A stretch of 56,070 nucleotides of DNA, filler included, from Sluysia triapertura (lineage: Eukaryota), in assembly GCA_046118255.1 (NCBI GenBank). It is 4 parts of 4 records of this genome, joined end to end, with 100 filler letters (N's around TTAATTAATTAA, not from the genome) between each part and the next. Parts side by side here need not be neighbours in the genome. Positions count along the whole stretch, not along the records: positions 13,885 to 30,632 come from JBJNIA010198153.1; 3 more parts are not named here. The stretch is one strand, 5' to 3'. Below are positions 13,885 through 42,752 of this stretch, piece by piece. Within the stretch, counting starts at the first letter, position 1, and each line of letters starts with the position of its first letter. The notes beneath the pieces are model-generated. The model ran no database searches, was not told the origin of the DNA, and saw nothing but the letters and a program-made list of their open reading frames with translations. Made by a program: the position numbers and the translations under genes.

Positions 13885-14641
13885 TACCATAAGCGCTTTT
13901 GAGTACTTTCGCGGTAGATATGAGCGCAATATAAATTAATATATTATTATTAATATATTATCTCAAATTTTACAAAAGTAAATTAATTTTGAGTGTAGTT
14001 TATGATCAATGTAAATTTTGAACTTAATAATAATAATGCACTAACGATTTATGATAATAATAAAATTGTTTTTATCTTCTATGGAAATTGTAATCTCCTT
14101 CTATAAGAAATTTTTAAATGTCTTCTCGTTAATTTATCAGGATTTTAAAACAAACTTCTCCAAATAAAATTTTAATACTTTAAAAACCAAATATCTTATT
14201 AATTTATAAATATTTTAAAATAATCTTCTTCAAATAAAATTACAGCATTGAAAACTAATATATCAATTTGTTATTGAGAATTTATAAATATCTTCGTTAT
14301 TTTTATACTATTTTTTCGTTTACCAACAATTGGTTGGTATAGAAATATATCTAGTAGATTTAAACAATAAAATTTTTGATAATAATAATTTTTAAAGTGT
14401 TTTGATAATAATAATAATAAATTTTTGATAATTTAATAATAAAAAATAAAATTTAAATATTTTAATAATTTTAAATATTTAATATTTATATTTCAAATAT
14501 TTTAATATAATTTTTAATTATTTTACATAAATTTCAAATAAAATATGAAATAAAAATATATAAAATATCTTTACCAAATAAAAATTATCATAAGAATTCA
14601 AAACGAACCATAAAAGATAAAACGATAAAAATTAAAATTAA

Positions 14642-15919
14642 TCAGATGTTAATAATGTAATAGTCATCGTTATCAAAATCCAGACTGAAATAATCATCGT
14701 CAAATAATTCATCCATTAACACTGTTTCTTTATCCACTGTATCGTCCAATGAATTTTAAATTTTCCGCTTCTTTGTCGCAGTCACGTTGCCCATATCATT
14801 TAATCCGGTGAGTGTTATGTCTTTATGTTTCATGCTTTTATGTGGAAGATTTTGTGCAGAATTTGTACTATGTAATAGAGAAGAAAATGTAGAAGTAGAT
14901 GGAATTTGATTATTCAAATGTTGATTAATCATTTAGGGTAAAAATGATGCATCTCTCTGCTTAATCAATTCAAAAAGTGATGTATAACCTTGTGCTAATT
15001 TTGTGCAAGTATTTCTCGGTGGAAATGGATACAACAGTTTTACTACTTTCCTAGCACGATTTGACGGATGAAATGATGAGTATGAAACTAAATTTGTAGA
15101 AGTTAAATTGATAATGTCACGTAACCATCCAAAAGGTATTTGAAATGTCCTAATAATAAATTCCGGTCATCAAGCTACAAGTATATGATCATGTAATGTA
15201 ATTAACCAAAATTTTCTTATTTCTGCAATATCTCTCGCATCTTTTAGATCATTTTCTCTTAATCCATGTTCTACCTTGAGAAAATCCTTAATTATCATTC
15301 TTGGTTTTATAAGTTCTTCGGAATGATATTGTTTATGATATGGTGTAAAACCAGCTCAAATAATTTGATGTCTATCATGAAAATCTAAAGCCAAATTAAT
15401 TGCTACAAATATTAAATAATCCTTATTAGCTTTATCTTCGTAAGGTAAATTCGTGAAATTTAAACCTTGTTGCCAAATATTTATGTTATCAACATCAGAT
15501 TCATATAATAATGGAAAAATTGTTAAGTCTATTATATCCACAAGTTTTTCGAAAAGAACAGCAAATGTTGTTGGTAGTTCTTCGGCTTCTACTTGGATTC
15601 TAAGATTTTCCTTTATATTAGAGAGAAGAATCCTTGTATACCAGAGTGTAAAGGAAGATTATTAATGAATAACGTTACTTTCAATGCTCCTCTAGCTACT
15701 GTTATTAGGATCATACCTTTTTCTACTGGAAAGCCTTCTAATGCTTTTACTCCGTAAAGATAAGTAATAAAATGTATCCATTTCATTCTTCAGAAAATTT
15801 GGAGTTGATTTTGAATCTAAGAATACAAATGGAGTATCATTGTTACCACAAAATCTATCTATTCCATTATAGAAGGAATTAATATTGTTTATTATATGCG
15901 CATGTGGATAATCCGACAT
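14642..15919 (-). pseudogene. Cassette copy 1, ORF-B: about 420 codons, frameshifted; beta-rich (possibly cupin-like) N-terminal region, KKRK, acidic tail
   Basis: MSDYPHAHIINNINSFYNGIDRFC... / ITVARGALKVTLFINN / LSNIKENLRIQVEAEELPTTFAVLF... continuing through stops to TKKRKI*...DELFDDDYFSLDFDNDD. Homologous to 20355-21015. Confidence 0.65.
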
Positions 15920-16088
15920 TATAGCTTCTTCGAAGTATAAGAATAATACATAAAATATATAAATATTGTTAACAATGAAAAAATAATCGTTAGTTCAATA
16001 TTGGTAATTTTTTATTTCTTTATTAATATACTCTTAAATCCTATGTATTTTAGGAAATTAAAATAAAAAAGAATTGAAGGAAATTAAA

Positions 16089-16553
16089 TTATTGATTGTT
16101 CTTCTTTAAAAATTTATGTTTTCTTAGTCTTTGATATTTCTTATATAATCCTGCCTGCTTGTAAAATTTTCTCACTTCCCTACGTCGGCGACTGTGCTTT
16201 TGAGATTTCTTCAACCCAGGAGGGAAATTTGTTGGAGGAACAACTAAAGTGTTTGGAGTATTTTTATTGAGTTCCTCTGGTTGTATTATTTCCACTTCAT
16301 GTACTTCTATACCTCTTTCCAATATATGCGGTGGAATTTTCTCAAAGATGTATTCGTAGAGAAAGGTTGTCTTACGGAATACATTCATACTTATAAGCTG
16401 AATCCTACAAAGAGGACAGTCTACCGTTTCCCCTACAGAATGTTTGAAAAGAACTACCATACATTCAAAGTGAGCTTTATGATCGCAAAGTGACATCTTT
16501 ATGTACTTTTTGTGAATACTTTTTTGACATATGGGGCAACATGTGAAAACCAT
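16089..16553 (-). CDS. Cassette copy 1: intronless RING-H2 finger protein with basic C-terminal tail (putative E3 ligase)
   Basis: CPIC...CDHKAHFEC...CPLC gives the C3H2C3 ligand set; tail SRRRREVRKFYK...KKYQRLRKHK; intact 154-aa ORF. Confidence 0.85.
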   Translation of the reverse strand: MVFTCCPICQKSIHKKYIKMSLCDHKAHFECMVVLFKHSVGETVDCPLCRIQLISMNVFRKTTFLYEYIFEKIPPHILERGIEVHEVEIIQPEELNKNTPNTLVVPPTNFPPGLKKSQKHSRRRREVRKFYKQAGLYKKYQRLRKHKFLKKNNQ

Positions 16554-16879
16554 GTTCTGAAATGCAATACAGAAATTAAAAAAAAAGAAATAAAAAAATA
16601 TAATAATATTAAAGTTTTTTATAAATTATATATTAAAAATCATATTTTATATTTTTACAAATTAAAACTATATAAATTAAAACTGTTTATATTAAAAAAC
16701 TTAAAAACTATGTTATACATGTAAAAATCCTAACAGCTAATATTGACATTTTAAATGACAGTATTAGAATTTGGCAGCCTGTCAGACAGAAGAAAACCGT
16801 ACTGATTACTGCCTATTTTTCATACGTCATTATACCCTACACTTTAATGGTCTTTAAATAATTATTTTTGTATCTTGGG

Positions 16880-17647
16880 TTATTTTGGTTTAGTACAAAT
16901 TTTATAATGTTTTCTATAATGATATTAACCATAAGTGTAGAATAAAGCATAATTATTAAGATGTAAAAATATACGTTAATTTTAATATCATTTGGTTGAA
17001 TGTTAATCGATGTTAAATTATTATAGTTCTGAAGGTTAGTTATTTTAGTATTGTCTTGAGTTACTGAGGATTTTAATGTCTTCTTCTTGTAGTACTTACG
17101 AACTTTTTTACTTTTTATTGTTATGTTTGTGATAGGTATTACTAAATAGGTATTTAATGTTTCATTATTTGTAAGTATCCATGCGTGTATTATTGATAAT
17201 AATGAATCAGCTTGATAATTTAGTTTGACTGTTTGTTTTGGTGCTATGAATCCATAAGTATATCCTGTGTTTATATAATATCTGACAATAATTAATTGTT
17301 TTCTAATGGATTTGTTATCTTAACAAAATTATGACCATACTTTTTTGCTAATATTAAGCATTTCATCGCTATCTTATCAAAGAATATATAATGGTTAGTT
17401 TGAATCAATGATCTTGTGTATATATTGTCCTATCTATTAATTCAATAGTTATCGTAACTTTATAAAATTGAAATTCGAATAATTCGTCACAATTAATTAT
17501 CCAGTATTTAGTAGTTTTATAAGGATTGTTTGATGTAATAGACCATTTTTCCAGGCAACATCGTATTGATAAATATATCAGTTTCTTGTCTATTATTTTA
17601 ATAACAGCTATTATCTCATCTGTTTTCGATTGAATTGATAGTTGCAT
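16880..17647 (-). pseudogene. Cassette copy 1, ORF-C: membrane-anchored protein with S/T-rich stalk (frameshifted)
   Basis: ORF 17405-17647 continues across frameshifts into IIHAWILTNNETLNTYLVIPI...KSSVTQDNTKITN...VYFYILIIMLYSTLMVNII. Matches 21925-22441. Confidence 0.5.
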
Positions 17648-17721
17648 ATTATAATAATAAGGAATTCTTTTATTTATACTATTTTTTGTGATTTTTGATG
17701 CATAAGTATCAGAAATTCAAG

Positions 17722-18258
17722 TTAGACAGATACAGAGTAAAACATAGACACCTGTATTCCACTATAATGTGTAGGAATTCTTGTATTACTATTATAATCA
17801 TAAATTACTTGTGGTATCATTGGTGGTCCTGGAGGAGCAAAGAATGAATGATTTCGTGAAATTGAATAGTGATTATTGTTATCATCATTGTTTGACGAAT
17901 GCGTATTTTTGCACTTAGTAGTAATAAATATATCAATCATTAATAATGCTATTATTATTGCTATTATAAATAAAGTACCTGAACTTAATAAAATTATTAT
18001 TGATGGATCCTTAGTCAACTTCTTTAGAATAGTTGTTTTTTCCCGTTTACCTTTTATTGAATAGTGTAACTGTTGAATAGCTTTAGCATGATTTTTTACA
18101 AACATAACTATGTGTCTATCCTTCGTTGCCATAAAATCCCTGCAAATTGTTATTGGATACATAGTTTTAGGTATACTTTGTTTGTAAACTTTCCATATGC
18201 TGAAATTAAATCTTGCGGGGTTTATACAAATATATTGTGCTTCGATACTGTTATCCAT
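17722..18258 (-). CDS. Cassette copy 1, ORF-D: single-pass membrane protein with Pro/Tyr-rich tail
   Basis: Intact 178-aa intronless ORF; hydrophobic run IIILLSSGTLFIIAIIIALLMIDIFI; tail APPGPPMIPQVIYDY. Confidence 0.6.
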   Translation of the reverse strand: MDNSIEAQYICINPARFNFSIWKVYKQSIPKTMYPITICRDFMATKDRHIVMFVKNHAKAIQQLHYSIKGKREKTTILKKLTKDPSIIILLSSGTLFIIAIIIALLMIDIFITTKCKNTHSSNNDDNNNHYSISRNHSFFAPPGPPMIPQVIYDYNSNTRIPTHYSGIQVSMFYSVSV

Positions 18259-18395
18259 TATTTTAACTTATATCTTTGTGTCGTAATTATAAAAATCAAA
18301 ATATTTGGGTCGATAAACTCTTTATGATCCATCCTAAATGGTCATTAAAAATTAACAACACTAATAACATTACATCTCTTTTCATATTTGAAGTT

Positions 18396-18397
<2 letters not shown>

Positions 18398-18461
<64 letters not shown>
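18398..18461. repeat. (AAT)n microsatellite
   Basis: About 21 perfect AAT units; explains the poly-Ile ORF. Confidence 0.95.
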
Positions 18462-18464
<3 letters not shown>

Positions 18465-18910
18465 TTCTAATAATGTAATAATAATTTTAAATATAATAAT
18501 TTTAATAATAATAAAAGTATTACTAATAATAATATTAATAACAACTATTTATTTTACATCCTATCTAAAATTATTTAATATTTCCTTATGAATTTACAAA
18601 AAGTATACATTTACATATACAAAATCATTTAATTACTTTTGCAAGACTAGATTTATTCATAATACCAATAACAATCATTTATTTTAAAGATTTTAAATAC
18701 TTTATAAGATTACTCGAAGATCTTAGATGCCTAACAAGGTTTCAAGAATACTTAAAGGTTAATAAAGTCTCAGATTCACAAGCTCAAAGGTACTCTAATA
18801 TTTTCAAATGTTTTTCAAGTCCATTTTGTATTGATTTTTCATATACTTGTAATTTCATACGTTTTCCATCCATATTCAGTTTTACATTTGGGCAATGGAT
18901 TCAGCTGCAG

Positions 18911-18950
18911 ATATATATATATATATATATATATATAGATATATATATAT
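18911..18950. repeat. (AT)n microsatellite
   Basis: Direct read. Confidence 0.95.
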
Positions 18951-20200
18951 GAGCCAGAAGCTTATCAAAAACGAATAGAATTCTAGAATGTTCTATTTTT
19001 AGAAATTAGATCTCCTTTTAGAAAACAACAATTTTAAATGATTTTAGAGAGTTGCAATGACAAGCTAACAACATAAACATCTTTTTCTTACTAGTACTTT
19101 ACACAAAGAACCAAGACGGGAATGTAGTACATAATATTATATATCACACTTTTGAATAAATTATTATAGCATGGTTAGTTGTCAGATTAAATTCCCATAG
19201 ATTATAACAGGTGTTCCAGTGATACGTGGATCACTTTTCTGATTAATTGACCATTAAAATGAACTTTGACTATTTAAAATATTACTCAATGCAAACACTT
19301 TAATTTCCATAGACGTGCAAATAAACTAAGCTCTCCATGCTTGTGCGAATATAATTCTTAACATGTTATAAAATATTTTTGATCAGGATACGGCTACAGT
19401 GTACGTCTTGTAATTTGAAGTGGTCGTATTTGTAACTAAAATTCGATAATGATCAATATAAAATCGCTTTACTTGTGTGAGGATTGGTGAGGATTGGTGA
19501 GGATTGAGGATCAGAACACTATTTTGATTATATTATTTAATAACTTATTTTATTCATTATTTATTTGTTAGCTATAATTATTTAATGATCATTTATTTTA
19601 TTTATTCATTTTATAAAAATGCTTATTATTATTACAAAAAATAAAGGAAGATTTAAAAAAAATTAAAATTAAAATCTAAATCTAAATTAAATCTTAAAGA
19701 AGTAGAAAATAATCATATTTAAAAAATTAAAATTGTCTAAATTTTGTTTCATTAGACAAAATTAGTATATTTTGTTTTAATGGAACAATTATTTAAATAT
19801 AATAAACACCGCAATATGGCGGTTAGAAATTCTGTATATAAATTGGTGACTTTGCAGAATTTCTACCAGTCATTAGCAAGAAAATTTTATTCTACAGGAC
19901 GCAGATTAATTTTCCATGAAAGTAAGATTTTTAATTGTATGTTTTTTCATCTTCTCACCGTAAAAGGGAGAGTAAATTCAGACTTAAAATCTTTGTCATA
20001 GTTTTGCATATACCGTAATTTGGATAAGTCAAAATCATCAAACTAAATTCATTAAATCGAATTTAAGTATCCTAAAATAATTATCATTATTATATATTTA
20101 CACCTTGTATCTATTTTGTATAAGTCATATCTTTGAATAATAAAACTTCAGGCTAATTACTCGAGTTTTTTATTACTTAAAGACAAAATCATCATTAAAC

Positions 20201-20322
20201 GCTAGACCGTAATAAGGCTAGCTTAAAATCATAAAATAATATCAAAAGCTTTCAACGATTAGACCGTAACCGGCTAATTTAATATTTTATTTTACTAAAG
20301 TTAGACCGTAAAAAGGCTAACT
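20201..20322 (-). repeat. Array of three bulged hairpins 3' of cassette copy 2
   Basis: GCTAGACCGTAATAAGGCTAGC, ATTAGACCGTAACCGGCTAAT, AGTTAGACCGTAAAAAGGCTAACT. Confidence 0.8.
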
Positions 20323-20354
20323 AAAAATCATTTAAATTACATATATTTAAAAGT

Positions 20355-21015
20355 ATTAAAATAACTTCATATTCGTCGTACGTAATCCTCGCCTTAAGTT
20401 GATAATCTTTACGCGATCTTTTCTAAGTTGAATGAAATGCTAACAGACCGCCGTCGTTCAGACTTAAGCCGTTTTCTGTTAGGCGAACTCTTTCCAGGTT
20501 AATATTTGCATCGTAAGTTAGGTGATAACAACTTTGCATCAGTATCCTCAGCAAAAGGAAGAAAGGATGGGGCAAAAAGAGGGATTGGTGGTAATACAAA
20601 GAGGATAGCGATGTGGGTTGGAAACTCGAGAGCTTCCACTAAGATTTCGCAATCTTTTGTCTACTCGGAAAGGTGGAGAATTGACAAACCTTCTATACGC
20701 AAAATCAACAGAGTCCCTTCGACAATTAGTGTAATTTTAACAGATCCCCGTGCGGATACAACATACATAGTGTCAAACATAGCTGGTATATTGGCTAGAT
20801 TTCGCGAAGAGATGAGGCGTTGTTTTGGGGTTAATGAAGAGATATGAGTCGTCAGGTTCGGACTTTAATTTACACTCGGTATCAAAAGAATTAGGGAAAA
20901 AGGTAGGGGTGGGATTTTCGGAACAAAAGCGATCGATAGAATTATAAAAGGCCCGAATTTGATTGATAATGTTTGCTTGTGGGCGCTGGGTATGTTGGAG
21001 TTGTTGTTGTTGCAT
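20355..21015 (-). pseudogene. Cassette copy 2, ORF-B homolog (frameshifted)
   Basis: MQQQQLQHTQRPQANIINQIRAFYNSIDRFC... / VVSARGSVKITLIVEG...LSE*TKDCEILVEALEFPTHIAILF aligns with copy 1. Confidence 0.7.
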
Positions 21016-21166
21016 TGATTTTGGACTGAAGAAAAATAAAACTGTAGTATAATAGAATAAGTATATAAAAATTATAAAACGAGGGATTCCGTACAAGTAA
21101 TTTATTGTCGATTTATAATTGTTATTTTATTACAGTAAATAATAATATTTAGGAATTAATATTGCT

Positions 21167-21585
21167 TCAAAAAGGATTATCGCACAATCGTTTATTCTTT
21201 ATATAAAATTTTCTGAGTTGGCGTCGTCGGTAATTACGTCTGGGCACCTGAAATTCGTTATACAGGAAGGTAACACCTGGGGAAGTTGGAGGTTGATATC
21301 AACACTCGTGTTTTCCTGGAGCCCTTGAACAGCTACAACAGGAGTTGAATTTGGTTGGATGTATTTTATAGTAAATTAATAGGATCTACGAAAAACTTTT
21401 TTTATAGTAGATGTCACATTCCGTAATTGTGGCTCGACATAGAGGACAAGGAGGTAAAGGAGTTAAAGCGGAGTCAAATAAGAAATAGAGACATCGAAAA
21501 CGGAAACGGTGCTTACAAGGTATTGCTATGGCATAATATTTGTGGATTGGTCTATGGCATATCGAACATAGTGTAAATCGTAATA
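21167..21585 (-). pseudogene. Cassette copy 2: RING-H2 homolog (absent from ORF track)
   Basis: FTLCSICHRPIHKYYAIAIPCKHRFRFRCLYFLFDSALTPLPPCPLCR...RRNYRRRQLRKFY. One His ligand is Arg, no ATG, reading frame disrupted. Confidence 0.8.
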
Positions 21586-21924
21586 AAGATTGTTTTTTTG
21601 CTAAAAAGTAAAATTGTATAATAAGATAATAACTACTTAAAGGAAGTAAAATTAATTTATCCTAATAAAATATATTGATAAAATTTATTCCTAACTAGAT
21701 AATTAATGCTATGTATGATTTTAATAAAATATGAGTTCCAACACCATCCTTCACACAACCGAAAATGGATAGTTAACAGCCATCACATATGTTTAGTAAA
21801 CAGGGAAATGCTATAACTCATATTTTATACTTATATAATTTATACATTAACGAAAAAATGATTTTTATGCCTTATAAATATGTAAAACTTATGAATTTGA
21901 AATACAATGCGTATAAATGAAGTA

Positions 21925-22441
21925 AAACTTAATAAAATGCGATAACTAAATATAGCATGATATAGATTTACAGAAGTAGTAGGAAATTTAAACGTGAATG
22001 ATTATATGATTGTGAACTTATATTTTTACTTCGTACCGTAATGTAATTAGTAGTCCTGACATTATTTGTAGTATTTAACATACTTAACGTAGTAGTGGTA
22101 GTAACTGGTGTTTGATAATTTATGACACCTAATTTGTCTAAAATAGGTACCACTAAATTGCACGCTCTATACTCTGGTCAAAATCCAAGAGTATCGTGGT
22201 GAATCTCGTTGTAACGTAAAATCCAAATTTCAATAAATGTGAGGTTACGTTCTGGCACAAAAAATAAATGAATACTTGTGTTGGGAAGTATTCGCGCGTA
22301 ATGTTGTTCTTTATCAAATATTCCATCGAAGTTTTTACTAGAATGATTCTTTTTATTTGCTTCATAACTTATTAATATACTAAGTTTCGTTAAAAGATTC
22401 GATACACGAACGAAGTTATTATCCTCCATATACATTATCAT
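21925..22441 (-). pseudogene. Cassette copy 2, ORF-C homolog
   Basis: ORFs 22178-22441 and 21968-22153 are in one frame across a TGA: FIEIWILRYNEI...NLVVPI...VTTTTTLSMLNTT...LNFLLLL*IYIMLYLVI. Confidence 0.55.
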
Positions 22442-25400
22442 TGAAAATTTAATAGTTGTTGATATATGATTAAAAGTATATAGTTTGTTCTAATTCTGTA
22501 ATTATATATATTGGCATAAATCCTAAATATAGAGTGACATTGAATAATTGATTTTCCATAAGACCATCTGTAGTGTCCTACTCACTCACCCATCTTCAAC
22601 ACAGGCATTCACAAACATCTATTACACATTACATCAACATATCATAACTTAAATAAAATATAATATCTTTTAACTTGAATAATATATAATATACTGTAAT
22701 TTAAACAGATTATAATATATTTAAATTACAATAATTTATTATATAATATTACTTTTAATTCGCCGTGATCACCTTTTCCAACTCCATCAACATTGCGTAA
22801 ATTTTCACATCCTTTCTTTTTGTTATTATTAGTAACATTATATGTTTATTATTATTGTTACAACTTTTATTATCTCCTGAAATGGTTACAACCTTTACAA
22901 CAATTTTATTTTCGAAATCAGGTACTTATTTTATAATGGTCCTTTTCAGTAATTATAGAGTTGTTTTTTGTGTACGGATTGAATACGAAATCAATGTTAT
23001 ACATTTGAAACATTATTATATAATTTAATTTGTCAAATCTACCAACGGATTATACTTTATTAATTTTATTCGGTGCATGTTTCTTCTTTTTTAGTTATAT
23101 CTAATCATTTCAATTAAAAGGTAAGTATATTTCATACTTATTGTGTATTATATATTTTCTTAGCCATATTTATTATTGCACATTGTCAAATTGTTGGCCA
23201 CAGATCAATATTAAATATCACTATACAAATGTACATAAATGCAATGCACACACACACTCACTACATTCACATAGAAAAAGTGTACACATTGGAGAATATT
23301 TCATTGTTTTTAATAATTGCAAAAAAATCTTTTAAACTGCTTCATCAAAAAGTACGGAAATGCATCTTTTTAGACGAAATCTTCTCTATTGTGTACTTGT
23401 ATGTTTTAGATCATGGTCTAGTTATTTATTTTCTATTCGGTAGAAAACATTGTGTATATTTTTAATGTGTATAAAGTGTAATATTAAACATTTTGTTTTC
23501 CCAGGAATTTGTATCAAAGTGTGATAAATCTGTATAAAACAAAATTTTAAAATTTATTTTTATCGAAATGATTATTTTATCTATGGGGAATTATACATTT
23601 ATTCCTTTAATTTTGGATTGCTTTGCTTCTTTTGTTAAATGCTATATATATTATACATTATATACTTGTTTTTTATTAAAAGCAACAAATGAATTTGTTT
23701 TTTGTTAATTTTTGTTTGTGTGGGTGGAAGATGATGATGTTTTGTTATATTATTTCGATGAGTTTTTGAAAAAATTAGAAAATTTCTCGATTTTACTTTT
23801 TCAATAAATAGTTTATTTTATTATTTTATTTGTATAATTCGCGCATTATCTATTCATTTATCTATTCATTTATTTTGTCGTCATATCTTTGAAAACGGTA
23901 CTTTTAGATGTTTGTTAAAACAAGAACATTAAGTTAATAAAAATTATTATCAATTTAGTTATTAATATTATTATTTTGTTGGAAAATATTATCCAGTTAT
24001 TCTTTGTTAATATTTATTTATATATCTTACTTGTTTTGACTAACATTTTACAAATATAAGTGCTAATTTATATATTGTATTGTTTTTTTCTGTTGTGATT
24101 TTTGATTTGTGAGATTTTGATTGTAAAAATGTATATGATATATTTATATAATTTAAACTTGCTCTATTCAAAAATATTACTATATTATCATTAATATTAT
24201 CCAGTCTCTTATATATTTAAAAATTTAACAGGTGTTTAGTATATAAAATGTGTTTTTAATTATCTTTTTATTTGAATAATTTCTTCTAATACAAAGATAA
24301 TTTTTAGTTGAAATTGTGAATTGTTTGAAATATTTTCTATTTTTATATATTTGTAAGGAAGTTGCAGTTGTTTTATTTTGATTATAATTACGATGTTCCT
24401 CAAATATTGCATTTGTTTAATGATTAACTGCCAGTAATATATCCGAATAAGTAATTAATGGAAAAATAAATATAAAAAGCACAGTAAATACTTAGCAGAT
24501 TTTAAAATAATTTTTGAGTCAGTTGGAGACACTTAATATTACAAATTAGTAGTATTATGGTTCACGACTCAGTAAAACGTTGTAAAGAAAGAATTATATA
24601 TATATTTTGTGCCCCGAAATGCAAAATTGTTTCTAGAACAATAGAAAAAGAAATAAATTTAATTTATAGTGCTTTTTGATTATGTGGGGTGCCAGGCTGA
24701 GGTTAAGATTTCGGCACGACACTGGTACTGAAATGTGAATAATTACCCGAGATATTTTTAATGCAAGGACAATTGAATTTTGAGTCTTGCAAATTAAAAG
24801 TTAATATCCCATTTAGAAATATATGATTCGGTTTGAAAATGAGTAGCAAAAATAAATTATATAGAAAATAGTGATGGATACACGTTTTTTAAATGTAATT
24901 GTGAACAAAATTTGTTAATGCTCTAAATTGAAATGGCTATTAAAAATTAATATGGTAAAGTAATTCTTTTATGATAAGAAATTGCAGATGTATAATCAGA
25001 ATAAAAATATTAAAAATCAAACTAAAATGGCAATAAATGAAATCTCAAAATAATCAAATAAGTAATATCGTCGTTTCTTGTCATTTATTATTCTGGTTGT
25101 TTTGATTAAAGATCCATCTACTGTAAGCTTTTTGTTTCAGTTTTTTTTATAAATAAACAGTTTTAATATTTTCATGATTTGGACCAACATTAATCTTAAG
25201 TATTAGATAATACTTTCAATGTCATCTTAGTTTTCATCTAAATTTAATTATTACTAATTTTTAACTTAAAAAATAAATACATCAAAAGTTAATGAAAATG
25301 TAAGAGAAATGTAACAATGTATCTCCTAAGGATAAAGGTGTCATTACGTGGCAATTTTGTCTTATCACTGTGTGGCGTGTAGTGATGCGTTTATTGTTAT

Positions 25401-25659
25401 TTTAATATGGTAAAACGTTACATTAATTTCTGATGATATAAAAGATTGTGAGGGCTTGAAATTATAAATAACATTGAACTGTTTATAAAGTTTAAACCTT
25501 AAGATAGTACATTTACAATTGAAATTCAGAACCTTATCTAGTATAATATTATGTTGTAATGGTTTGATGGGCTTTATAATTTTAATATTTTTTGTGTATT
25601 TAATGTTATTGAAGTTAGTTACATCACTACTATTATAATTTGTTCTAGTATATAAGAGC

Positions 25660-27321
25660 TCACCCTCAAGCTGGTCGATACTCTCTTCGGAACACTTGTC
25701 GGTAACATCACATGCAATTATTTGCAATATCTCATTGAGCTCTTGTGCGACGTATAACTGAACATCTCTTTGAAGCATTTTATCAAATATTTTAAGATAT
25801 TTCTGGGCTTCTCTACTATTCAATTTAATCTTTTCGATTGTATTAAGTAAACTAAAAATCTTAAGACTTAAAATTGCTATTTATTAAATAAAAAATTTTA
25901 TTAAACACTAAATATGTTGGTTCTAATTTTATTGTAGTGTATAACTTCTTGTCGTCCATGAATCCCGTTTCGTTGTTGGTGGAACAATTATACCTAGAAT
26001 AAATAACATAAATATAATAGTTATAAGACAAAGGATCAATAGATATTATGGTGAAATTATTACCTTGTTTAGTCATATGATTGATCAATTCTTCTTTATC
26101 TTCCATTTTACCTTGCTCATCTCCAACTTCAATATACTCTTTGAACAGTCGATGGACGAAATTGTTACTATCAAAATCTTTGTCTAAGTCAGGAATTACA
26201 ATCGCCGGATAACTTTGGTGCCCATATTCAACAATTTTTTTGTCCACATTACAAATATAATTACCATTGTTTTCATATATCATTAAATGTTTTGACTTTG
26301 ATACTGTTTTTGTGAATTTCATTCCTTGGCCTCTACTAATTAATTCGCCACATAATCTTGCTCTTTCGGTTATTAAACACTGTCTCGAGATAAGATCATT
26401 AATAGAGTCTCGTCTAATCGACTCCAAATCAACATTTGTAGGAAAACTTTCATTAGGGTGCATGAACTTGGTCTGTCTAATATGTACAACTGTTTGCTTA
26501 GCATCTGGTATATAATTTCGGTTTTTAAATTGTATTTTTCTAAATTTTTTTCTTTTATTTCTTCTAATACAATTATCATCTCGATGATATCTTGACTTGG
26601 TATCTCGATATGCATGGTTAGAAAAATTTGCATCCGTAAATTTACCATCTACTGTAGAATTTGTCACTTTAAACTTAGTGTGATTAAATGAATTATTCTG
26701 AATCATTTGAAAAGCTTCAATTGCATCCATAGATAAATTAAAACATTCCAGAATTTTGTCAAGATATTCTTTAACATAGTGTATATTCTTCATGAAGAAT
26801 TGTACATGCCATAGCAAAAATGTTCCCAGGGAGATTACGATTATATCCAATATTATGAATAAAGAACTAAAGATCTTGAATGTAGCATTGATAAGTATAC
26901 TTGAAATATAGTACATTTGAACGAATCTTTAAAAAATAATTTTGTTAAGTCTGCTTTTGATCTTTTGAAAATTTTTCTTTTTAATTTTTTTGTTTCTCCT
27001 TTTCTTTATTTTTGCATGATAGTTTTTAATTATAAATTTGTGATCTAATTTTAGTTTTAGCTGCTAATTGGCCGTTCAGCTAGAATGTTACTCACCCAAT
27101 CAGAGTATTTTGATTATGAGTATAACTGAGTTCATTCTGATTGGGTGAAAGTAATTAACATAAAATTTGCATACTTGTGTGGCGTCATCAGCACAGACAT
27201 TATTAACTTTAAAAATAACTCCGACTTCATCTGACTTTAAATTATCCATCAAGCAAATATTTAAATTATAATGAGAAGGTCGTAGTTTATAATCATCTAT
27301 TGATGTAACTTTATTTGACAT
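25660..27321 (-). CDS. Multi-exon gene or young pseudogene, unknown function; N-terminal hydrophobic segment and basic patch
   Basis: 351-codon ORF (25861-26916) is unlikely by chance at this AT content. Flanking exon-like blocks end in GT donors (DDATQ|gtatg; SIDQLE|gtgag). Stops upstream of the long ORF. Confidence 0.55.
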
Positions 27322-27699
27322 TAATTAATTATTCAAGTCTGATATATCAACTAATATAAAACATTGATAATCGGTATTAAAATTAGACACAATCAAAAAA
27401 GCAGCCATTGTGATAATGATAATCTATTTATAAAATACCATTTATAAATACCACATCAGAATAGAAAATTGTGATAATGATGATAATAATTTTATTTATG
27501 ATTATGATGATGGTGATATGCAATTGTGATGATGAAGATAACGAAAGTGATAGAGGATAAAGAAATGATGATGAAGATGATAATAATTATTATTAATGAT
27601 AGGAAGTAGCTACTTTGGGAGTATTAAACTCTGATAGCATTTATTCAAAACATTTTTATTTATATATTTAAATAATAAAATTGAACTAATTAATTTACA

Positions 27700-28657
27700 T
27701 GATCTTATTAAAAAATTGTAGCTATAAAACGTAAAACATATATTGACTAAAACATAACAAGAACTAGAATTTTCAATTAGATGATAAAGATATGATAAAT
27801 AAAGTTGTTTAATTTCCTTTGAATATGCCGCCGAAAGTACTTTGCTTATTTTTCTAAATAACAATAAGAACATAATTATAATCATAAAATAAAATTAACA
27901 AAATGTAAGGATTTACCTTAAGTATGTCAAAACTTTGAGGACTGAACAAAGTGTGGTTTTGTTGGTTATAGGCAATTGCATGACAAACTCTAGTATTGTT
28001 CTTAGACTTTATAGTAAGTCTTAGATTCGTTTACCATGATCATCGATATTTGGCATGGAGTAAACAGAATGTAGCCTTGGAGATCAAAAGTACCAAGTGA
28101 ATAGATACATTTATAGCCGTATTTGATACATTCGCCTGCTTCTGTTGACTCATAAATATACAGTGCAGTTTTATAAAATCTTGGATGGAATTTGTTTTCA
28201 CTGTTTCAGATCTTGATACGCGCGTATTGTTGATTGATTTCATTTGCCATACTATTTGATTTTGAAGGGATATCAGTAGCCGATAGGACTTGGTTATTAC
28301 TTATTCTGATAAAAGTGTTAGGCGTTAGCGTTGAAGTTGAAATTGAATGATTAATACTTGCTACGTTTCTAACGACATCGTGACCAATATTTGTACAAAA
28401 AACATCAGGTGAAATCGCCGCGATACTATCATTAAAATTAATTGAAGTTACTTGATTTTACAGAATTTATTTTCTATACTAACATTTTTCTTTCTTTTAG
28501 TTAATTCATTATTATATTCAACAGCCTTTTGTAGCAATTTTGAAAGGAATGCCTCATTATTTCTCAAAGTTTGAATGAACTCATGTAATTCTGTATAAAT
28601 ATTTTTTATACTGACTTTTCGCTTTATTTCTAATTGAATAAAATAATCGTTTCTCAA
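27700..28657 (-). pseudogene. Decayed gene with Unkempt-type CCCH zinc finger
   Basis: About 28075-28192 reads FHPRFYKTALYIYESTEAGECIKYGYKCIYSLGTFDL, versus remembered Unkempt YHLRYYKTGICIHETDSKGNCTKNGLHCAFAHGPHDL (C-x9-C-x6-C-x3-H). Two ligands mutated; stops nearby. Confidence 0.65.
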
Positions 28658-29469
28658 TCTATTTTCAAATGATAAATGATATATTTGAGCTTAAGTAAGT
28701 ATGAGCTTGATGATGTTCATCGTAGTCATAATAATATTCATAATCATCATTATCATAATTGTCGTCACAAGTAGTTATTTCTTTATAAATTTTGCGTGAC
28801 ATTTACGATCAAAGTTCATTTTGAAGTATATCTTTTTAAATCTAAATTTTGTAACAATAATCTTTTTAAAATTCTAAGTAAATATCAATTAAGTGAGCTC
28901 TATAACTGAATGTATTTTTCTTTTTCATTAATTTTGAGTAAATAATAATTGTGGTATCAACAATAATGGTGAACGAATTTTATTGAACTACAATTAAAAA
29001 TTATTGCTATTAGTTGACCGATTACTGCGTTGTGTTGCTGCAAAGGCACAAGTACTGTTACTATGCAAAGTCAATTTATACTGATTCTAAGCTGTCAAAA
29101 TTGACGGAAACTCGATTTTTTTAATAATGCAAATCTGTCAAGAAGGACAGTTAAATAGTTGCCAAGAATACATAAAATGTTAATGATAGTTAATAATTCG
29201 ATTTGTAATAATGATAGTAATAATAATAATGCAAAATTTACTCTACTATTGCAAAGTGTTTCTGAAGGTCCGTCCGACTAATTAGGTAGGATTTATATCA
29301 GAAAGAAGACGCCCTAATTATATTTAAACTTTAGAGGAATTTGTTAGTGCTATGATATAATAATACTGGTAGAGAATGCCTTAACAATTCAGGTTGAAGA
29401 AGGACTAATTTGGCCTTAGACAAATAATGCTTTAAAAAATAATATTAATATACAATAGGTACTCGTTGA

Positions 29470-29753
29470 ACCAGCATTTTTACGGTCTGGTCAATTTCTA
29501 ATTATATTAAGCTTTAAACCAGCCTTTTTACGGTCTGGTCCATTATCAATTATTTTAAATATCACGAAAATCAAACCTAAATAATGGCTTTTATTTGTTA
29601 TGTTACACGAAATATTGCAAAACAATAGGATAACGTTACAATAAATAATATTATAATAGATATACTGATTTTATCAACTTAAGCTTACTGCTTAGTTGAA
29701 TTCAAAATTCTTAGATTTTAGTGGAATTTGACCTAGCCTGTTACGGTCTAGGT
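29470..29753 (+). repeat. Second array of three bulged hairpins, inverted relative to 20201-20322
   Basis: ACCAGCATTTTTACGGTCTGGT, ACCAGCCTTTTTACGGTCTGGT, ACCTAGCCTGTTACGGTCTAGGT. Confidence 0.8.
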
Positions 29754-30632
29754 ATAAACAAACAATTATTTTAAGTAAAAATTTTAAAATCTCTATTAGA
29801 TTACAATTAGAGAAATGTTAATATACGACCTTATATAAATAAAATTACTTCTGCATGGATGGAAAAAATTATATTTTCGTTGGAAAAATTATATCTTCTT
29901 TGAGCCGATATTTTTGTTATTCCCTTATTGCCTTTTTCCTAAATTTCGCTTGTCAAATTTTTACTTAAAATCTTACCTATTTATACTATTTCAACTCCTC
30001 CATTTTGGAATTATTTCATTAAAACAATAATAAATTATTGAAACAAAAGTTTTCATTTTAATAAATTTTTTACTTTTACTTTAATACTAATAATATTTAT
30101 TTTTCTAAAATAAAAATAAATAAAATAATTGCTAATAATAAATAAATAAAGTAATTGTTAATGACAAATCAAATTGTTATTTATTATCAAATAATTAAAT
30201 CATTTGTTTTCTGCTTATATATCCATTACCATTGTCCATTTTATTTTTTATTAATCCAATCCATTCTAACAAATAAAAAATCCATTCTAACAATAATAAA
30301 AGTAAAAATCAAATAAATTCTTTTAACACATTCTTCTTTTATTTAAAAATTTCTTAATAAAATGTTCTTTATTAAAATATTAATTTGTGAGAAATAAAAG
30401 TCAATAGAATAAAATTTAAATTTAAATTAAAGCTGTGAGTTCACCAACATAGTGGACTCACCAGCGAGTGCCAGCCGTTGGATTTTGTAAAGTAAAGTAA
30501 TGGAGGTCAAGTCAAAAAACGATTAAATTTTCTTAGATATATATTAATTGTTTCAAATTGTAGGGAACTCGTCATTCGGTAATCATCACAATTCATCACA
30601 CAATATTCATAATAACTCATCTCATAAAATTC

Positions 30633-30732: not shown

Positions 30733-31159
30733 TTGTAAGGTTTATATTATGATTGCGATTTGTTTATTGAAATGTTTGGTGAATGAATATTGTGGATTGT
30801 TTTAGCTGAGTATTGAAGTTTGTTATGTTAGAAATGATTGAGATATTAGGTGCTTTGTTGCTGTATACGAGTTGATGAGGTGTAATGATTATCTGATGTT
30901 GATTTATAGTATTTGCGCAAGTGTATTTCGGGAGTAAAAAGATGATTATTATGAGAATTGTATTTTAGTGAAATTTGATTTATGAATGTTAGGTGTAGTA
31001 TTTTGATTGGGCTTGGATTATGAGTGTTGACTACAACATGTATAACGACTAGTGTCACAAGAAATGTGGTTATTCATGTTGTAATATGAATAAAGAAATT
31101 TTAAATAGAATTTCGAATGTGTAAATTTTATTTCTTAATAATCTTTATAATTTAAATAT

Positions 31160-32390
31160 ATTTTATTCTTGAAAAACATCGTTTATGTTTGATTAAATGA
31201 ATAAAGAAATCTACTTTTATTACATTTATTTTTAAAGTTTGATATACAAATAATTTTAAGATCGATTTATAGAGTATCTTCTTGACATGTTTCGAGGTCA
31301 AAGTTTTCAAGTCTCTAAATAACAATAGAGGATAAATAAACTTTACTATAAGAATATAAGTGTAATAGTTAATAATAATTACTTTTAAACTTTGAGAATT
31401 ATAATTGTTGAAAAATTGCTCGTTTAAAGTAGATATTAATTGTTGAATCCTTTGGTGATGATCTGTTAAATAAGACTTAACGAAATTTTCCGACAATTGA
31501 GCTGTGTTATGTGAGTATGGACAATTATTTCCGTATCTTGAATAGCTTCCATCTGGATTGCTAGTGTAAAGACAGCAGCCCGATTTGAACTGTCTTAATT
31601 TGTCAACTAGATCTAATCGCTTTATTTGAGTATCAATAGTCGAAACATCATTTTGAACTATATTTTCCTTTAAAAACAATTCGTCAATGAATATAGAACC
31701 GCTAAATGAAAAATTTAAGGGGTTCCAATCTCCAGATTGGAAAACTTGTATTCGGTTATGTTGTATTCGTTTTTTATTTCCAACATAATGAAGTCATCTT
31801 GTATATTCATTAATATTATATTCAAATCATGTTTACGAATTAAGAAATGATAAAAAGACCATTATTACTTAATTTAGAACTTTTATAGATAATTCTTAAT
31901 TCATTTTCATTACTAACAATTAACATTAATAAAATAAAACTTTTAACATTAATTTTCAACAAATTTACAAACAAATAACAAAATCGTTTTCTATTAACTC
32001 CAAAATAAATGTAATTACATAAATTTATTTCAAACTTTCTTTTAGAAATATTATCTTTGATGACTTTATTTGCTTCTACCAAAATACATTCACCGCTAAT
32101 ATTTTTTAGACCATAAGCATTTCGTTTGATCTTATATAAATTTTCTTGGAAATATGAACTAAACTGTTTCAAAACTCTTCGAAAAATTCTGAAATATAGT
32201 AAACTTGTTAAATTATATTCTACACTTAGAACAATATTGTTTCCAACAAAATGTATAACACCGTTATCTAAATCTTTATTGTCGATGTATCGATTATTCA
32301 CAATATTGTTTTTATTTCGGCATTTATTCCTTTTTCCTTTATGATTTTAACTCGTACACTGTGCCCATCAATGACGTCATGAAATTGTAG
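31160..32390 (-). pseudogene. Decayed intron-containing gene with a second Unkempt-type CCCH finger
   Basis: KLRQFKSGCCLYTSNPDGSYSRYGNNCPYSH has C-x9-(Y for C)-x6-C-x3-H spacing. After a gt...ag intron, a further remnant KIICISNFKNKCNKSRFLYS. Confidence 0.55.
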
Positions 32391-33199
32391 AGTAATTAAT
32401 TAAAAGTTTTCTTTATAATTTAATCTTTACACTACTGTAACATGTGATTCAGTATTTGAAAAGCATAGTAATTGGTGTTCTTTGATCATTAATTGAAGAG
32501 ATAATAAATAATTAAATAATAAATCCCATTATTTAAATTTTTGTCTTCTGACAACTTTACAGCTTTAATTTCCTCTTATTTACAGTATTCTTTAGCAATA
32601 ATCATCTTTGAATTTATTTCATAAACACTAGCATTTACTAGATCGAGTATTCTATTTAAAACATCAATGTCATCGACAGAGAGCATGTTTGAAAATTTAC
32701 AATAAACGAAGAGTGAATTACGACGGAGCACTGTACACTTGTTTTTACCACCTTAAAAAATTAACTATATAAAATTACTACTATATTTAGTACTATGATG
32801 ATAAACTGTTGTAACTGGCTATCCAACCAGAGGTATAAAAATAATGAAAACGATCACTCTGGTTGGACGCATACTAATAACACCATTTATGTTTCACAAT
32901 GAAGACCAACCACCATTAACAATGACATCGAACTGTATATACGAAATAATAGTGTCATCGTCAATGCTGGTAGTTACAAAATTGATAATTAATAATTTAA
33001 AAATAATGAAAAATTAAAATGATAATAATAATAACAATGGTGTTATTATTATTGTTATAAATACATAAACCCTGAAAAATGCTTTAATAAGCACGAACTT
33101 ATCTAGACATATTTAAAGTTCTTAACATATTTGAAATATCTTTATTTACAGTAATGCTAGTTCTTTTTGATTACTATGTCTTAAATTGATTTTATAATG

Positions 33200-33516
33200 T
33201 AACTTTAATATTCGATGAATGTTGGAAATTATGATTTGGATTATGAAATGTTTTGGATTAGTTTGATAGTTTATTTGATAGTTTAAGATGTAAATTGTAG
33301 TTTTAATGTTCTAAGATTATCAATTAAAATGTTCTAAATGTGTATTAATGATTTTGGATGTAAGTATGGTTTTGATGTAAAGTTGTGAATTTTAAAATGT
33401 TTTGATATGAGGAAAAGTTTTAATATGTTGGAGAAGGTGAGATGTATGATGTAAGAAGATGTGATATTTTGTACGAGTTATTAGTTTAAATTCCAAGTGA
33501 AAAGTTGGCCACCACA
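33200..33516 (-). repeat. LTR-like family member
   Basis: G/T-skewed tract ending GTTGGCCACCACA. Confidence 0.55.
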
Positions 33517-33936
33517 ATTCACAATTATAATATCTTAATCTGTCTCAAGTGTTTAACAGGCCAAGATATGAGCGTGAAGTTAGCTTAAGAAGACAATATA
33601 AATGAAAATCAATTAGTCTCCAAAATCATTCATGTAACTTTTGGTAACTTCCATTATGTTATTTTATAATTATTTTCAAGTTTAAGAATTTTGTGTGTTT
33701 AAATATTTTAAGGATTTGATTTAAGGTTTAGTTCGTTATGTGTGACATTTTTGTAGAAATATAGTTTTAAGTTCTATATTCTATAGTTATATATTCTATT
33801 TTAAGCAAGCAAATTATTTAAAAAAAGCAAAATATTTTTTAAAAGTAGTGAATACGAAAAGTTGATCATATCATGTACAATTTTAGGTAATTTAAATAAA
33901 AATAAAAAACTTTAAATGTTTTCATTTTAATTTCAG

Positions 33937-34125
33937 GTGCTGTAACACTTTTCGTGGCCTTGATCATTTTGGCAATTCTTTATTATTTTAAATACGTATC
34001 TGGAACATTATTCGTAACTTATTATTATCATATAGTGGCGAGTACAATAATACTATCGTATTTCATGACAATCATAGTATTCTTAAAATCATTTAATAAA
34101 TCGGCTATTTTAATTAATAAAAATG
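33937..34125 (+). CDS. Isolated two-TM exon, possibly ERG4/ERG24 family (LBR/TM7SF2-like)
   Basis: tttcag|...|gttag, 189 nt, open: (G)AVTLFVALIILAILYYFKYVSGTLFVTYYYHIVASTIILSYFMTIIVFLKSFNKSAILINKN. Family call rests on hydropathy pattern only. Confidence 0.3.
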
Positions 34126-35879
34126 GTTAGTATTCTTTTTGATGAATAATTTAAACATACTTGACTTGAGGCTTTGTCAGGTCTATTTTTACAAATTTCC
34201 AATTATAAATTTCATAATTTTTTTTACTTTTGAAAAAATTTAATAAGTTAAATAGAGGCATCCGAATAACTCTATTTAACTATTTTATCGAAATAAAGAA
34301 ATTTTATTTTTTGTGGGGAGGACTTCATGCTCTTAATAATTTTATCGTTATAGTAAAATTTCATTTTTTGTGAATTATAGAAAAGATTAAATTTAATTAA
34401 ATCTCGTATTATTTTTATTTTAAAATTGTTAACAATTAACTTAACTTTATTAACAAAATTTTTAGACTTACAGCCTTTAACAAAAGTTAAAAATTTATTC
34501 TAAATAAATCACAACTTTTATTTACGAAAACATAAAATAAAATTAATAAGATAATAGTTATTATTATGACAATAATTATGATAATTAAATTCATATTTAA
34601 TTAAATATTTAATTCTACTCCTGATCGTCGATGGGGACACTACAACAATTTCTGCATAACATTAATACAAGTTGAAAGTGCGACACCTCGCAACAAAATT
34701 TGATGTCGTCTTTCATAGTTCTAAAAAGGTTGTATAAAAATAAAGATAAAACATACTGTGCAAGTTTTGTATAGGGAAATTCCAGATAAACTTTATCGCA
34801 TGATAAAAATTTCTCAATGATTTTGAAATTCGCATACAAAATCTTAAATCCATCTTAATACACTAAAAATCAAAATCTTATATCTAAAATCATTAAAATT
34901 ATATTTAAGATATTAAAAACATTAAAATTGCATTTTAAATCTCAAAGTAATAGTAATATAAATGGAATTTTTTTATACCTTTAACTTCATTAATTCTAAT
35001 TCACAACTCTTTCATAATTATATATTATTGTAGTGAACAATATTCACCACCAACAAACATGTCTTATCACAGCGATCAAAGCCAATAACTTTTAGCACAA
35101 TTATTCTAACATAGGAACTAAATAGATAAAAGGTCAGAAAAACATTTGAAAAGTTGAGATAATTTGAAACCATAAGAAACTTATTCATCTAAAAAGATTT
35201 AAGAAGTAAATAATTAAGAAATTAAGCAAATAAAGATATTGAATTTAATGAAAGAAATTAAAAGAAAGAATTGTGTTCGAGAAAGACTTTCATACAATTT
35301 TACTTTATTTCACTATTTCATGTATTTGTATTTTGAAGATTTCAACAAAAAGACAAAGAATTTTAATTTCAAAGAAAGAAAGAAAAATAGCTTATGCGTT
35401 TTTTAATTTTTATTAATTTTATTTTTATTCTATTTTTATATTATTTTATTATCCACACTACTACATTTTTATTACTAATCATTATTGTCATTATCAATCA
35501 TGACTACATTTATTATTTTTATTTTTAATTACATTATATGTCAGACATTACATAAATCTGACATATTTCCGACATGAACAATTATCAGCTGCCGTCATTG
35601 CACAACTTTATTGAAAACTACATCGCAACAATACAGTTGCCTTATTATTGGTCATTAGATTTCATGTTAACTTTGTGCTTTTCATTGACCAATACATTGG
35701 AGTACAATAACAATTAATTAATTAGTCAATATTAAGTAAATGATAGAACATATAAGATAAACGTGTACAAAAACACACGCACAATTATTTTAGTAGAAAC
35801 ACGGTTAAAAGATTCGTGCGCAAACTGGTAAATTCTCAAAGATATAATTTAGAAATTATAAAATTATTGATTTGATTTA

Positions 35880-36780
35880 AAATGAAAAGTTGAGCATTTT
35901 TTCATCAATATCATCTTTTATTTGATCTATCGTGTTCAGGAATTGAATTAAATCAATTGTTAAAGATAAGAACTGTTCTCCAGATTACGTCACATCAAGT
36001 TAACATTTTTAACAAATGTTAAAGTTTTAACAAATTTTAATACATTTTCAGATATTCGAAAAAAAGTGAGATATATATCCTTATTTAATGCGACATTATT
36101 CATGTCTTCAAAATAAATCAATACATTTTCAAAATTATACAAAACAAAAGTAACAAAATTGTTATTTCTTATCTCAGACGGATTCGCAATTAAATGTTTT
36201 TAACATTAATGTCATTATGAGTACATATGGTATTATCAGTTAAATAATATAAAGCTGACAGAGTATTAAAAATCATTTTTATTAGCAATACTTTAATTTC
36301 AGAATTGTTGCTTTGTTTTAAACAGTTATCAATGTGATCATAAATAAAATACCGAAAAGGATATTCCAATTGCTCAACAATTGATTGAAATTCAATCTGA
36401 ATTCGGTGATACTGAACGATGTCTAACTTTTGATTACATTTCGATTTCATGTAAAAGTTGGCTACCACTTATATCTAAAACATGCACATCATTTTCTTTG
36501 AAAAGTATTTTAAACATAGGCGTATCTGTACGAATCTTCAGAAGAAACGAACTACGATTAAAATCTGATAAAAATCGTTGAGAATTTTTAAATGTTTGTA
36601 GATTAGCTTGAGATATTACACTTAATCTCAACTTAACTAATTAACACTTATCATCTCAGGAATTAGGATCAATTAAATTGGAATCATCTCTAATTTGTAC
36701 TAATGTAACTTCGATATGATTCAATTTTAAAAAGGTCTCTATTGCTGTTCTTTCATCATCTTCTACTAATGTACCTAAAT
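35880..36780 (-). pseudogene. Protein-kinase-fold pseudogene
   Basis: Subdomain remnants in order: LLHEIEM*SKVRH (III-IV), IVQYH...IVEQLE (IV-V), LSALYYL..ICTHNDINVKNI (VIa-b), FVLYNFE (DFG position); frameshifts. Confidence 0.65.

Positions 36781-40059: not shown

Positions 40060-40061
<2 letters not shown>

Positions 40062-40116
<55 letters not shown>
40062..40116. repeat. (TTA)n microsatellite
   Basis: Direct read. Confidence 0.95.
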
Positions 40117-42751: not shown

Positions 42752-42752
42752 T

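Follow-up and report, generated by a model that had tools for sequence, protein, structure and literature searches.

Nine bulged hairpins in two inverted arrays around a decayed gene run of Sluysia triapertura: possible end signals of a dead element

Introduction

In the end hairpins of the IS200/IS605 family and in REPs, the accounts cited here describe a protein that reads a short hairpin of single-stranded DNA through a bulge (PMC5934647, PMC5027513, PMC8266576). One case in these accounts is IS608, in which the ~22-nt hairpins IP_L and IP_R lie near both ends of the element and carry a single extrahelical T that the transposase TnpA reads for strand specificity. Such structure-read hairpins, with one base flipped out, are a bacterial theme at the ends of elements. 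Here we analyze a 56,070-nucleotide stretch of the genome of the eukaryote Sluysia triapertura (assembly GCA_046118255.1), hereafter called the window, in which bulged hairpins form two inverted arrays at the two ends of a run of broken genes.

The window consists of four contigs (1-13784, 13885-30632, 30733-42651 and 42752-56070) separated by N linkers and has a G+C content of ~25%; the second contig carries the arrays, the blocks in which they lie and the bracketed gene run. On its minus strand, open reading frames (ORFs) of at least 100 codons cover a fraction of 0.28, vs 0.01 in simulated sequence. Outside this contig we found microsatellites and low coding cover which, together with an exon of Bax inhibitor-1 at ~9944-10135 (Pfam E 4e-12), indicate an intron-containing eukaryote. 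Positions 1-8499 and 54601-56070 were covered by scans only, without reading by eye.

Results

Nine Hairpins Share a Loop End and a Bulge

The left array lies on the minus strand and the right array on the plus strand, with nine hairpins altogether (table 1). Each has a stem of 3-6 bp, a 2-bp neck, a loop of 6-7 nt ending in TTAC and one T bulged on the 3' arm. Only the TTAC loop end and the one-base T bulge are invariant over the nine copies: all stem positions vary, the feet differ among copies, and the spacers and flanks within an array are unrelated to each other. An earlier note on this DNA had described six of these hairpins (c1 to c6), and all six are real, in position as well as in stem; the set was incomplete, however, its loops of 5-7 nt were given too wide a range, and the sequence TTACGGTCT, invariant in those six copies, does not remain so over nine.

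Two of the additional copies, c7 and c8, were recovered with a scan fixing only CC/CA..TTACGGT, and their stems differ from those of the other copies; c9 was spotted in the alignment of the two blocks described below, at the place matching c8. Hairpins of the CC/CA..TTACGGT type with a stem of at least 3 bp number eight in the window, against a mean of 0.05 and a maximum of 1 in 200 Markov simulations. Among the 26 3'-bulged hairpins of the window, the class with TTAC and a bulged T has eight members and every other class at most two. When right arms were permuted among copies, the observed pairing was reached in 2 of 720 permutations for six copies and 2 of 40320 for eight. The covariance model that the earlier note had proposed, built on its six copies and run on the window, placed its nine best matches inside the two blocks; the held-out c7, c8 and c9 rank 7th to 9th of 15 matches, the weakest, c8, being at background level (15.9 bits vs 15.4 for the next match).

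Some candidates and readings were discarded. A 3'-bulged TTAC hairpin at 31559-31577 falls within an ORF of a different contig and was discounted as a chance occurrence, 0.79 being expected per window, and the reading of TTACGG as a UNCG-type tetraloop was rejected as the flanking pairs fail to hold across copies. We also set aside the pair count of a first alignment (covariation 0.352 vs 0.175, 2 of 500 shuffles), because it had placed three copies with 6-nt loops in the wrong register.

The Arrays Lie in Inverted Homologous Blocks

The two non-coding blocks that contain the arrays are homologous in inverted orientation. The alignment of 20297-19495 (minus) with 29443-30231 (plus) scores 192, vs ~95 for local shuffles, and is the top of 184 window stretches, the runner-up scoring 143. 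With the CC/CA-type hairpins cut out the score is still 175, against 115 ± 14 for shuffles and a shuffle maximum of 148, and identity in the core outside the hairpins amounts to 238 of 328 columns (73%). No larger fold accompanies this homology, since the block does not fold better than its shuffles (z -0.95 as RNA and -1.28). On its outer side the left block is adjoined by a repeat that is common to another contig.

The copies matched by this alignment (table 1) offer 28 pair positions, of which 17 are the same, 8 show double Watson-Crick changes and 3 are broken, whereas independent drift at the divergence of the blocks predicts 0.7 double changes and 12.6 broken pairs (P 3e-7 and 1e-4, respectively). 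The two pairs that fall among the six copies first described show double changes at 4 of 14 positions (P 3e-4; 0.017 under the most generous null), in line with the covariation that the earlier note had asserted. The excess of double changes and the small number of broken pairs indicate that the hairpin fold was under selection. Fold and TTAC loop end were thus kept while the two ends drifted to ~73% identity, from which it follows that whatever read the hairpins recognized structure plus loop and bulge, not the sequence of the stem.

The Arrays Follow the Gene Run and Not ORF-B

The hairpins had previously been proposed as a candidate cis-acting RNA element on the sense strand of a gene cassette, three of them lying just 3' of the second copy of a gene named ORF-B. 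The strand assignment stands for the left array; the right array lies on the opposite strand, upstream of the minus-strand genes. The 1,050 nt that separate the full-length ORF-B copy 1 from the contig end behind it contain neither hairpin nor block, the block scores there being 101 and 112 against shuffle means of 112 and 108. ORF-B copy 2, which does precede an array, lacks its C-terminal half, and no ORF-B relic was found before the right array on its strand. Copy 1 without an array and the right array without ORF-B speak against an association with the 3' side of this gene; what the arrays go with is thus the gene run, at its two ends.

ORF-B itself belongs to a very small family. Copy 1, with X at its stops, retrieved two relatives among 1.84 billion representatives, both unnamed: P0001 (365 residues, uninterrupted, E 8e-17) and P0002 (E 6e-10). 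The match of copy 2 to this family is confined to the N-terminal part, whereas copy 1 includes the C-terminal half. The C-terminal halves of the relatives give weak concordant matches to NF005906 (E 0.076 and 0.082) and to the PolC exonuclease 2p1j (E 0.051), and through them the C-terminal half of ORF-B appears weakly DEDD-exonuclease-like. Inspection by eye of the strand expected to carry the acidic ExoI motif of DEDDh exonucleases did not reveal it in either P0001 or copy 1, and predicted folds of ORF-B (predicted local distance difference test scores of 29 and 37) were too poor for a fold search. An HDH stretch that would suggest an HUH protein is not kept in the relatives. We also considered that TGA might be read as tryptophan, as four minus-strand junctions of the contig are TGA; yet P0001 and P0002 have other residues opposite the TGA codons of copy 1, which indicates decay, not recoding. 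Although only about a third identical as protein, both copies change to the +1 frame in nearly the same position (15760-15790 and 20815-20850, minus strand), where P0001 is continuous; this may be a shared old lesion, a programmed shift or a coincidence. A separate ORF fragment at 49524-49835 (minus) shows by eye a first motif like that of DEDD exonucleases, with no family or structure match and no profile likeness to ORF-B.

Searches for the Motif in Other Collections

The single-hairpin pattern occurs in 99 stretches of IMG/VR and a two-core pattern in at least 120 stretches each of IMG/VR and GTDB, with 9 motif matches in JGI metagenomes. Among the matches listed for IMG/VR and GTDB, 339 loci include one with two hairpins, an identical duplicate with a 3-bp stem, and the hairpin covariance model run on 11 loci returned no E below 0.11. 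No related array was present among the matches listed in the prokaryotic, viral and metagenomic collections. Arrays of 51-nt tandem units in Cohnella (L261, L264, L278, L292 and L295) have TTACGGTCT in common with the hairpins and were rejected since their fold differs: each unit has a small perfect palindrome around TTACGGTCT..AGACCGTTA, and these arrays, unrelated to the hairpins of the window, are possibly REP-like or coding repeats. A keyword search of open-access titles and abstracts found no description of the motif, which is weak evidence of absence.

Genes between and around the Blocks

The blocks bracket ~9 kb of mostly minus-strand, broken genes. Of the 14 ORFs of at least 80 codons between the arrays, 10 belong to the minus strand; the plus strand has 4, and 3 of these have a minus-strand ORF opposite them. 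The two cassettes of RING and ORF-B genes are 28-48% alike in aligned protein segments. No relatives of RING copy 1 were found; judged by features, it looks most like a set of proteins in which small RING proteins of viruses predominate (top score 0.91, a lead only).

Table 1. Hairpins, Blocks and Genes of the Second Contig
Feature	Position	Strand	Remarks
Left non-coding block	19495..20297	-	Inverted homologue of right block; hairpins on inner side, AT-rich outer side
Hairpin c8	19953..19971	-	New; TCTC/GAGA stem; partner c9
Hairpin c7	20009..20026	-	New; 3-bp stem, mismatch next; partner c6
Hairpin c1	20201..20222	-	Partner c5 in block alignment
Hairpin c2	20258..20278	-	Partner c4 in block alignment
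Hairpin c3	20299..20322	-	Stem of 6 bp, neck CC/GG, loop of 7 nt with TTAC end, T bulge; unmatched in right block
Right non-coding block	29443..30231	+	~0.8 kb, like left block
Hairpin c4	29470..29491	+	CA for CC; one neck pair broken
Hairpin c5	29518..29539	+	Partner c1
Hairpin c6	29731..29753	+	Partner c7
Hairpin c9	29790..29813	+	New; TCTCTA/TAGAGA stem, neck TT/AA not CC/GG, loop AGATTAC, T bulge
ORF-B copy 1	14933..15994	-	Full length, interrupted by stops and changes of frame; outside bracket, no hairpins behind
RING copy 1	16089..16553	-	154 aa, open; outside bracketed segment
ORF-B copy 2	20423..21126	-	Broken, several frames, N-terminal half only
RING copy 2	21149..21661	-	Basic tail, broken; PF13639 E 1.4e-5, below curated cut-off
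Orphan ORF	21968..22489	-	One internal stop; no Pfam
Orphan ORF	25365..25880	-	171 codons stop to stop
Orphan ORF	25861..26916	-	351 aa, hydrophobic N-terminus; no relative found
Unkempt-like CCCH zinc finger ORF	28002..28457	-	One internal stop; some ligands lost; PF25427 E 8.1e-8 (above cut-off)
Short orphan ORF	28448..28690	-	First of minus-strand run, ~780 nt from c4

Another contig contains, at 31152-32346 (minus), a second Unkempt-like CCCH ORF (Pfam E 0.0011) with an orphan ORF upstream; it resembles the 28002-28457 ORF (z 5.9), and the element family may have more members here. At 36190-36468 (minus) lies a kinase-like relic, one stretch of which resembles a protein-kinase catalytic loop, without Pfam support.

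Other Features of the Window

A dispersed, strongly strand-skewed AC-rich repeat family occurs on several contigs (5455-5655, 33244-33520, 40787-41209, 46506-47260 and 30560-30632); by eye, a possible member starts ~330 nt beyond the right block. An orphan ORF of 412 residues (42846-44084, plus) has an N-terminal tandem repeat of 13 residues (39 nt). A duplicated stretch (44067-45165 vs 52754-53576) includes in one copy a tRNA-like sequence (44757-44827, minus; Rfam 39.6 bits). At 55060-55284 (minus) there is a fragment resembling a gypsy-type integrase, without a matching Pfam hit, and at 9060-9230 a G+C-rich island with short palindromes interrupts a very AT-rich contig.

Discussion

The motif is real and stronger than first described, and its interpretation shifts from an RNA element 3' of ORF-B to proposed end signals of an unclassified dead element. 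Of the first proposal, the evidence supports a single-stranded structure that was under selection, has a sequence-specific loop end and bulge and forms part of a mobile or virus-like element; it does not support a tie to the 3' side of ORF-B. The account we prefer, to which we would give slightly less than an even chance, is that the two blocks are the inverted homologous ends of one dead element and the hairpins its subterminal recognition sites, read in single-stranded form. The element would measure ~10.7 kb (roughly 19.5-30.2 kb of the window), inserted in a eukaryote chromosome, probably an invertebrate one, and a protein encoded by it or by a helper would have bound the four to five hairpins of each end while the strand was single, perhaps to replicate, excise, join or package the element. 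With the inverted layout, the hairpins close to the 3' end of either strand would have a bulged T and those close to the 5' end a bulged A, and the two strands would thus be marked alike. ORF-B is a speculative candidate for the binder, weakly DEDD-exonuclease-like and with no visible first acidic motif. The proposal of one element is supported by the inverted homology of the blocks beyond the hairpins, by their bracketing of the gene run and by the repeat just outside the left block. The double changes between matched copies, the high minus-strand coding cover of the contig and the confinement of the nine best model matches to the two blocks also speak for it, and IS608 and REPs provide a precedent for protein-read hairpins of single-stranded DNA with an extrahelical T or a required bulge.

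Several observations weigh against this proposal. There is no exact outer terminal repeat, just two 9-mer AT-rich inverted matches, and the contig ends 400 nt past the right block. The second RING/ORF-B cassette (14933-16553) lies outside the bracket, and hence these genes are not confined to it. No transposase, HUH/Rep, recombinase, polymerase or reverse transcriptase was found in the scanned ORFs and the six-frame stretches 22492-25362, 26921-28000 and 28451-29470; with the enzyme absent from the contig, this copy would either lack autonomy or form one segment of something larger. The whole evidence stems from one locus, in which the nine copies are related and not independent, and c7, c8 and c9 were chosen partly for their pairing. 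With respect to the polymer, the stem pairs speak for DNA or for both strands, since 60 of the 63 are Watson-Crick, G-T is absent from the T-bulge strand and the A-bulge strand has a single wobble, but the test built on wobble pairs assumes a G-U share of 5-15% and is weak at 5% (P 0.04-0.17). In addition, G-U would extend the stem on the A-bulge strand in 4 of 9 copies, vs 0 of 9 for G-T on the T-bulge strand (P 0.026, from non-independent copies), which hints at RNA on the A-bulge strand, and template switching, in the account cited, can give Watson-Crick-only double changes in RNA hairpins too (PMC8794818).

Under RNA as well as DNA parameters either strand forms the hairpins, and energy consequently does not decide between the polymers. 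Single-stranded DNA is slightly favoured over RNA. The strongest competing explanation, unlikely on the whole though to be taken seriously, is that the hairpins are RNA cis-elements (for packaging, export, localization or translation) of a large retroelement or RNA-virus-derived family, the blocks being two related insertions in opposite orientation; the T-bulge strand would then be a 3' trailer (left block), or else the A-bulge strand a 5' leader (right block). The hairpins do form in context as RNA, outer-pair probabilities reaching at least 0.9 in 8 of 9 copies for the T strand and in 7 of 9 for the A strand, and some neighbouring genes are RNA-related, namely the CCCH finger, the arginine-rich tail of RING and the DEDD-like ORF-B. 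The MS2 operator has a 5' bulged A two pairs below its loop, and the A strand here presents this geometry below a loop starting with GUAA, which is the strand opposite to that of the earlier note. The encapsidation signals of yeast L-A/M need a protruding A according to the cited account (PMC5666360), and giant invertebrate retroelements are described, in the portion of the literature covered here, as having accessory RING or DEDDy genes; the G-U extension mentioned above also fits RNA.

Either choice of strand, however, would leave one block without genes, and would require that a second member of the family landed in inverted orientation no more than 800 nt from the opposite end of these genes. 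Moreover, full-length ORF-B copy 1 has no array behind it, the T-strand stems contain no wobble pair, the block has no larger fold as RNA, and no gag, pol, RNA-dependent RNA polymerase, integrase or direct long terminal repeats (LTRs) were found in the contig (13885-30632), which may be part of a larger element. We prefer the interpretation as one element because it accounts for both blocks, whereas RNA read from one strand leaves one of them without genes.

In baculovirus-like large DNA viruses, homologous regions are near-identical tandem units with a central palindrome, in a genome with core genes. That the hairpins are repeats of this type, imperfect palindromes of an origin or enhancer within an integrated and decayed stretch of a large DNA virus, seems improbable. 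It would agree with AT-rich intergenic blocks 9 kb from each other in which short imperfect palindromes lie 40-60 nt apart, with the viral look-alikes of RING copy 1 and with the second CCCH ORF and kinase-like relic on the neighbouring contig. Against this, no viral core genes were found in the ORFs and stretches scanned and no relative in IMG/VR, the spacers between hairpins are not repeats of each other, and a double-strand binder would not allow the stems to vary freely. Least credible of all is a functionless relic, an old inverted duplication whose small palindromes were kept paired by template-switch mutation, which creates and repairs stems in single events in the account cited (PMC8794818) and would suit both the dead genes around and the Watson-Crick to Watson-Crick nature of all 8 double changes, yet leaves unexplained why nine hairpins agree in their TTAC loop end, their 2-bp neck and their T bulge, why this class stands out among the 3'-bulged hairpins, and why the bulge, which such repair should erase, persists.

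The locus could represent an undescribed class, which we consider a rather doubtful prospect: a eukaryotic mobile element or segmented virus-like replicon with diverged inverted end blocks of four to five TTAC-loop bulged hairpins each, read single-stranded on either strand. Its cargo would comprise RING and CCCH genes and a family of pseudo-exonucleases whose other known members are two unnamed proteins. Were the hairpins RNA, they would constitute a new, compact kind of hairpin bound by protein; should the blocks turn out to be unrelated insertions, the motif would still be structured and well supported, though confined to one repeat family and of modest interest.

Comparison with Known Systems

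At gathering score, Rfam gave no match to the hairpins (IRE, viral packaging signals, hammerheads and others), the single match in the window being a tRNA elsewhere; a loose scan for the hammerhead core gave 10 hits, none in either block. The first three fingers of Unkempt prefer A/U-rich RNA in the account cited (PMC12136788), a preference too loose to tie the CCCH gene to the hairpin loops. Burro elements and Terminons, as far as the cited source covers them, resemble the locus in their many accessory functions, including RING or a DEDDy exonuclease, and in their decayed copies in AT-rich genomes (PMC6431247), but this contig has no gag, reverse transcriptase, integrase or hammerhead, and its ends are inverted instead of direct LTRs. 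Helitrons and Replitrons are eukaryotic elements with terminal DNA hairpins, and Helitrons capture fragments of host genes; in the accounts consulted they have one hairpin at one end or, as in Replitrons, end in short direct repeats (bioRxiv 10.1101/2022.12.15.520654), whereas here inverted arrays occupy both ends and no Rep was found in the scans. The locus departs from baculovirus homologous regions in the unrelated flanks of its array copies and the lack of core genes in the scans. As for DNA transposons with near-identical terminal inverted repeats and a target-site duplication, the inverted blocks here are only ~70% alike, show no exact outer repeat and, on the right, end near the contig end.

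The A-bulge strand resembles the MS2 operator and the L-A/M signal in its 5' bulged A in a stem of free sequence, with two pairs between bulge and loop as in MS2 and a protruding A as in L-A. Both differ from the present hairpins, which have a 6-7-nt loop starting with GUAA and stand in inverted arrays at both ends without coat or Gag-Pol genes.

The usual nonanucleotide of CRESS-DNA viruses ends in TTAC. Their origins are comparable, in the account cited, in having a conserved motif on the 3' side of a hairpin loop that is read by a protein in single-stranded form (PMC8780604). Here, instead, a loop of 6-7 nt has four invariant bases and no conserved nonanucleotide, the stem of 3-6 bp is bulged, nine copies replace one in a linear 10-kb context, and the scans found no gene for a Rep endonuclease-helicase.

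By analogy, the arrays would work most like the end hairpins of IS200/IS605 and REPs, yet they lack the features that define membership of either. REPs and REPtrons are likewise clusters of short palindromes bordering a coding region, and those of E. coli need their bulge in the accounts cited above; here, in contrast, the context is eukaryotic, no TnpA_REP was found in the scans, and the conserved tetranucleotide lies in the loop rather than as a GTAG-type foot. The hairpins of IS608 are single and both on the top strand, whereas the present arrays are inverted; TTAC is the flanking target of IS608 and here a loop end; and the prokaryotic IS608 requires the Y1 HUH transposase TnpA, of which the scanned ORFs and six-frame stretches contain none. 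No family tested here matches arrays at both inverted ends of a eukaryotic multi-gene element. The hairpins resemble those of IS608 in shape only, with one extrahelical T on the T strand in 9 of 9 copies. The definition of the motif (2-bp neck, TTAC loop end, one-base bulge and free stem) is tight enough to find intact copies and the missing enzyme in the genome of the host or of its relatives.

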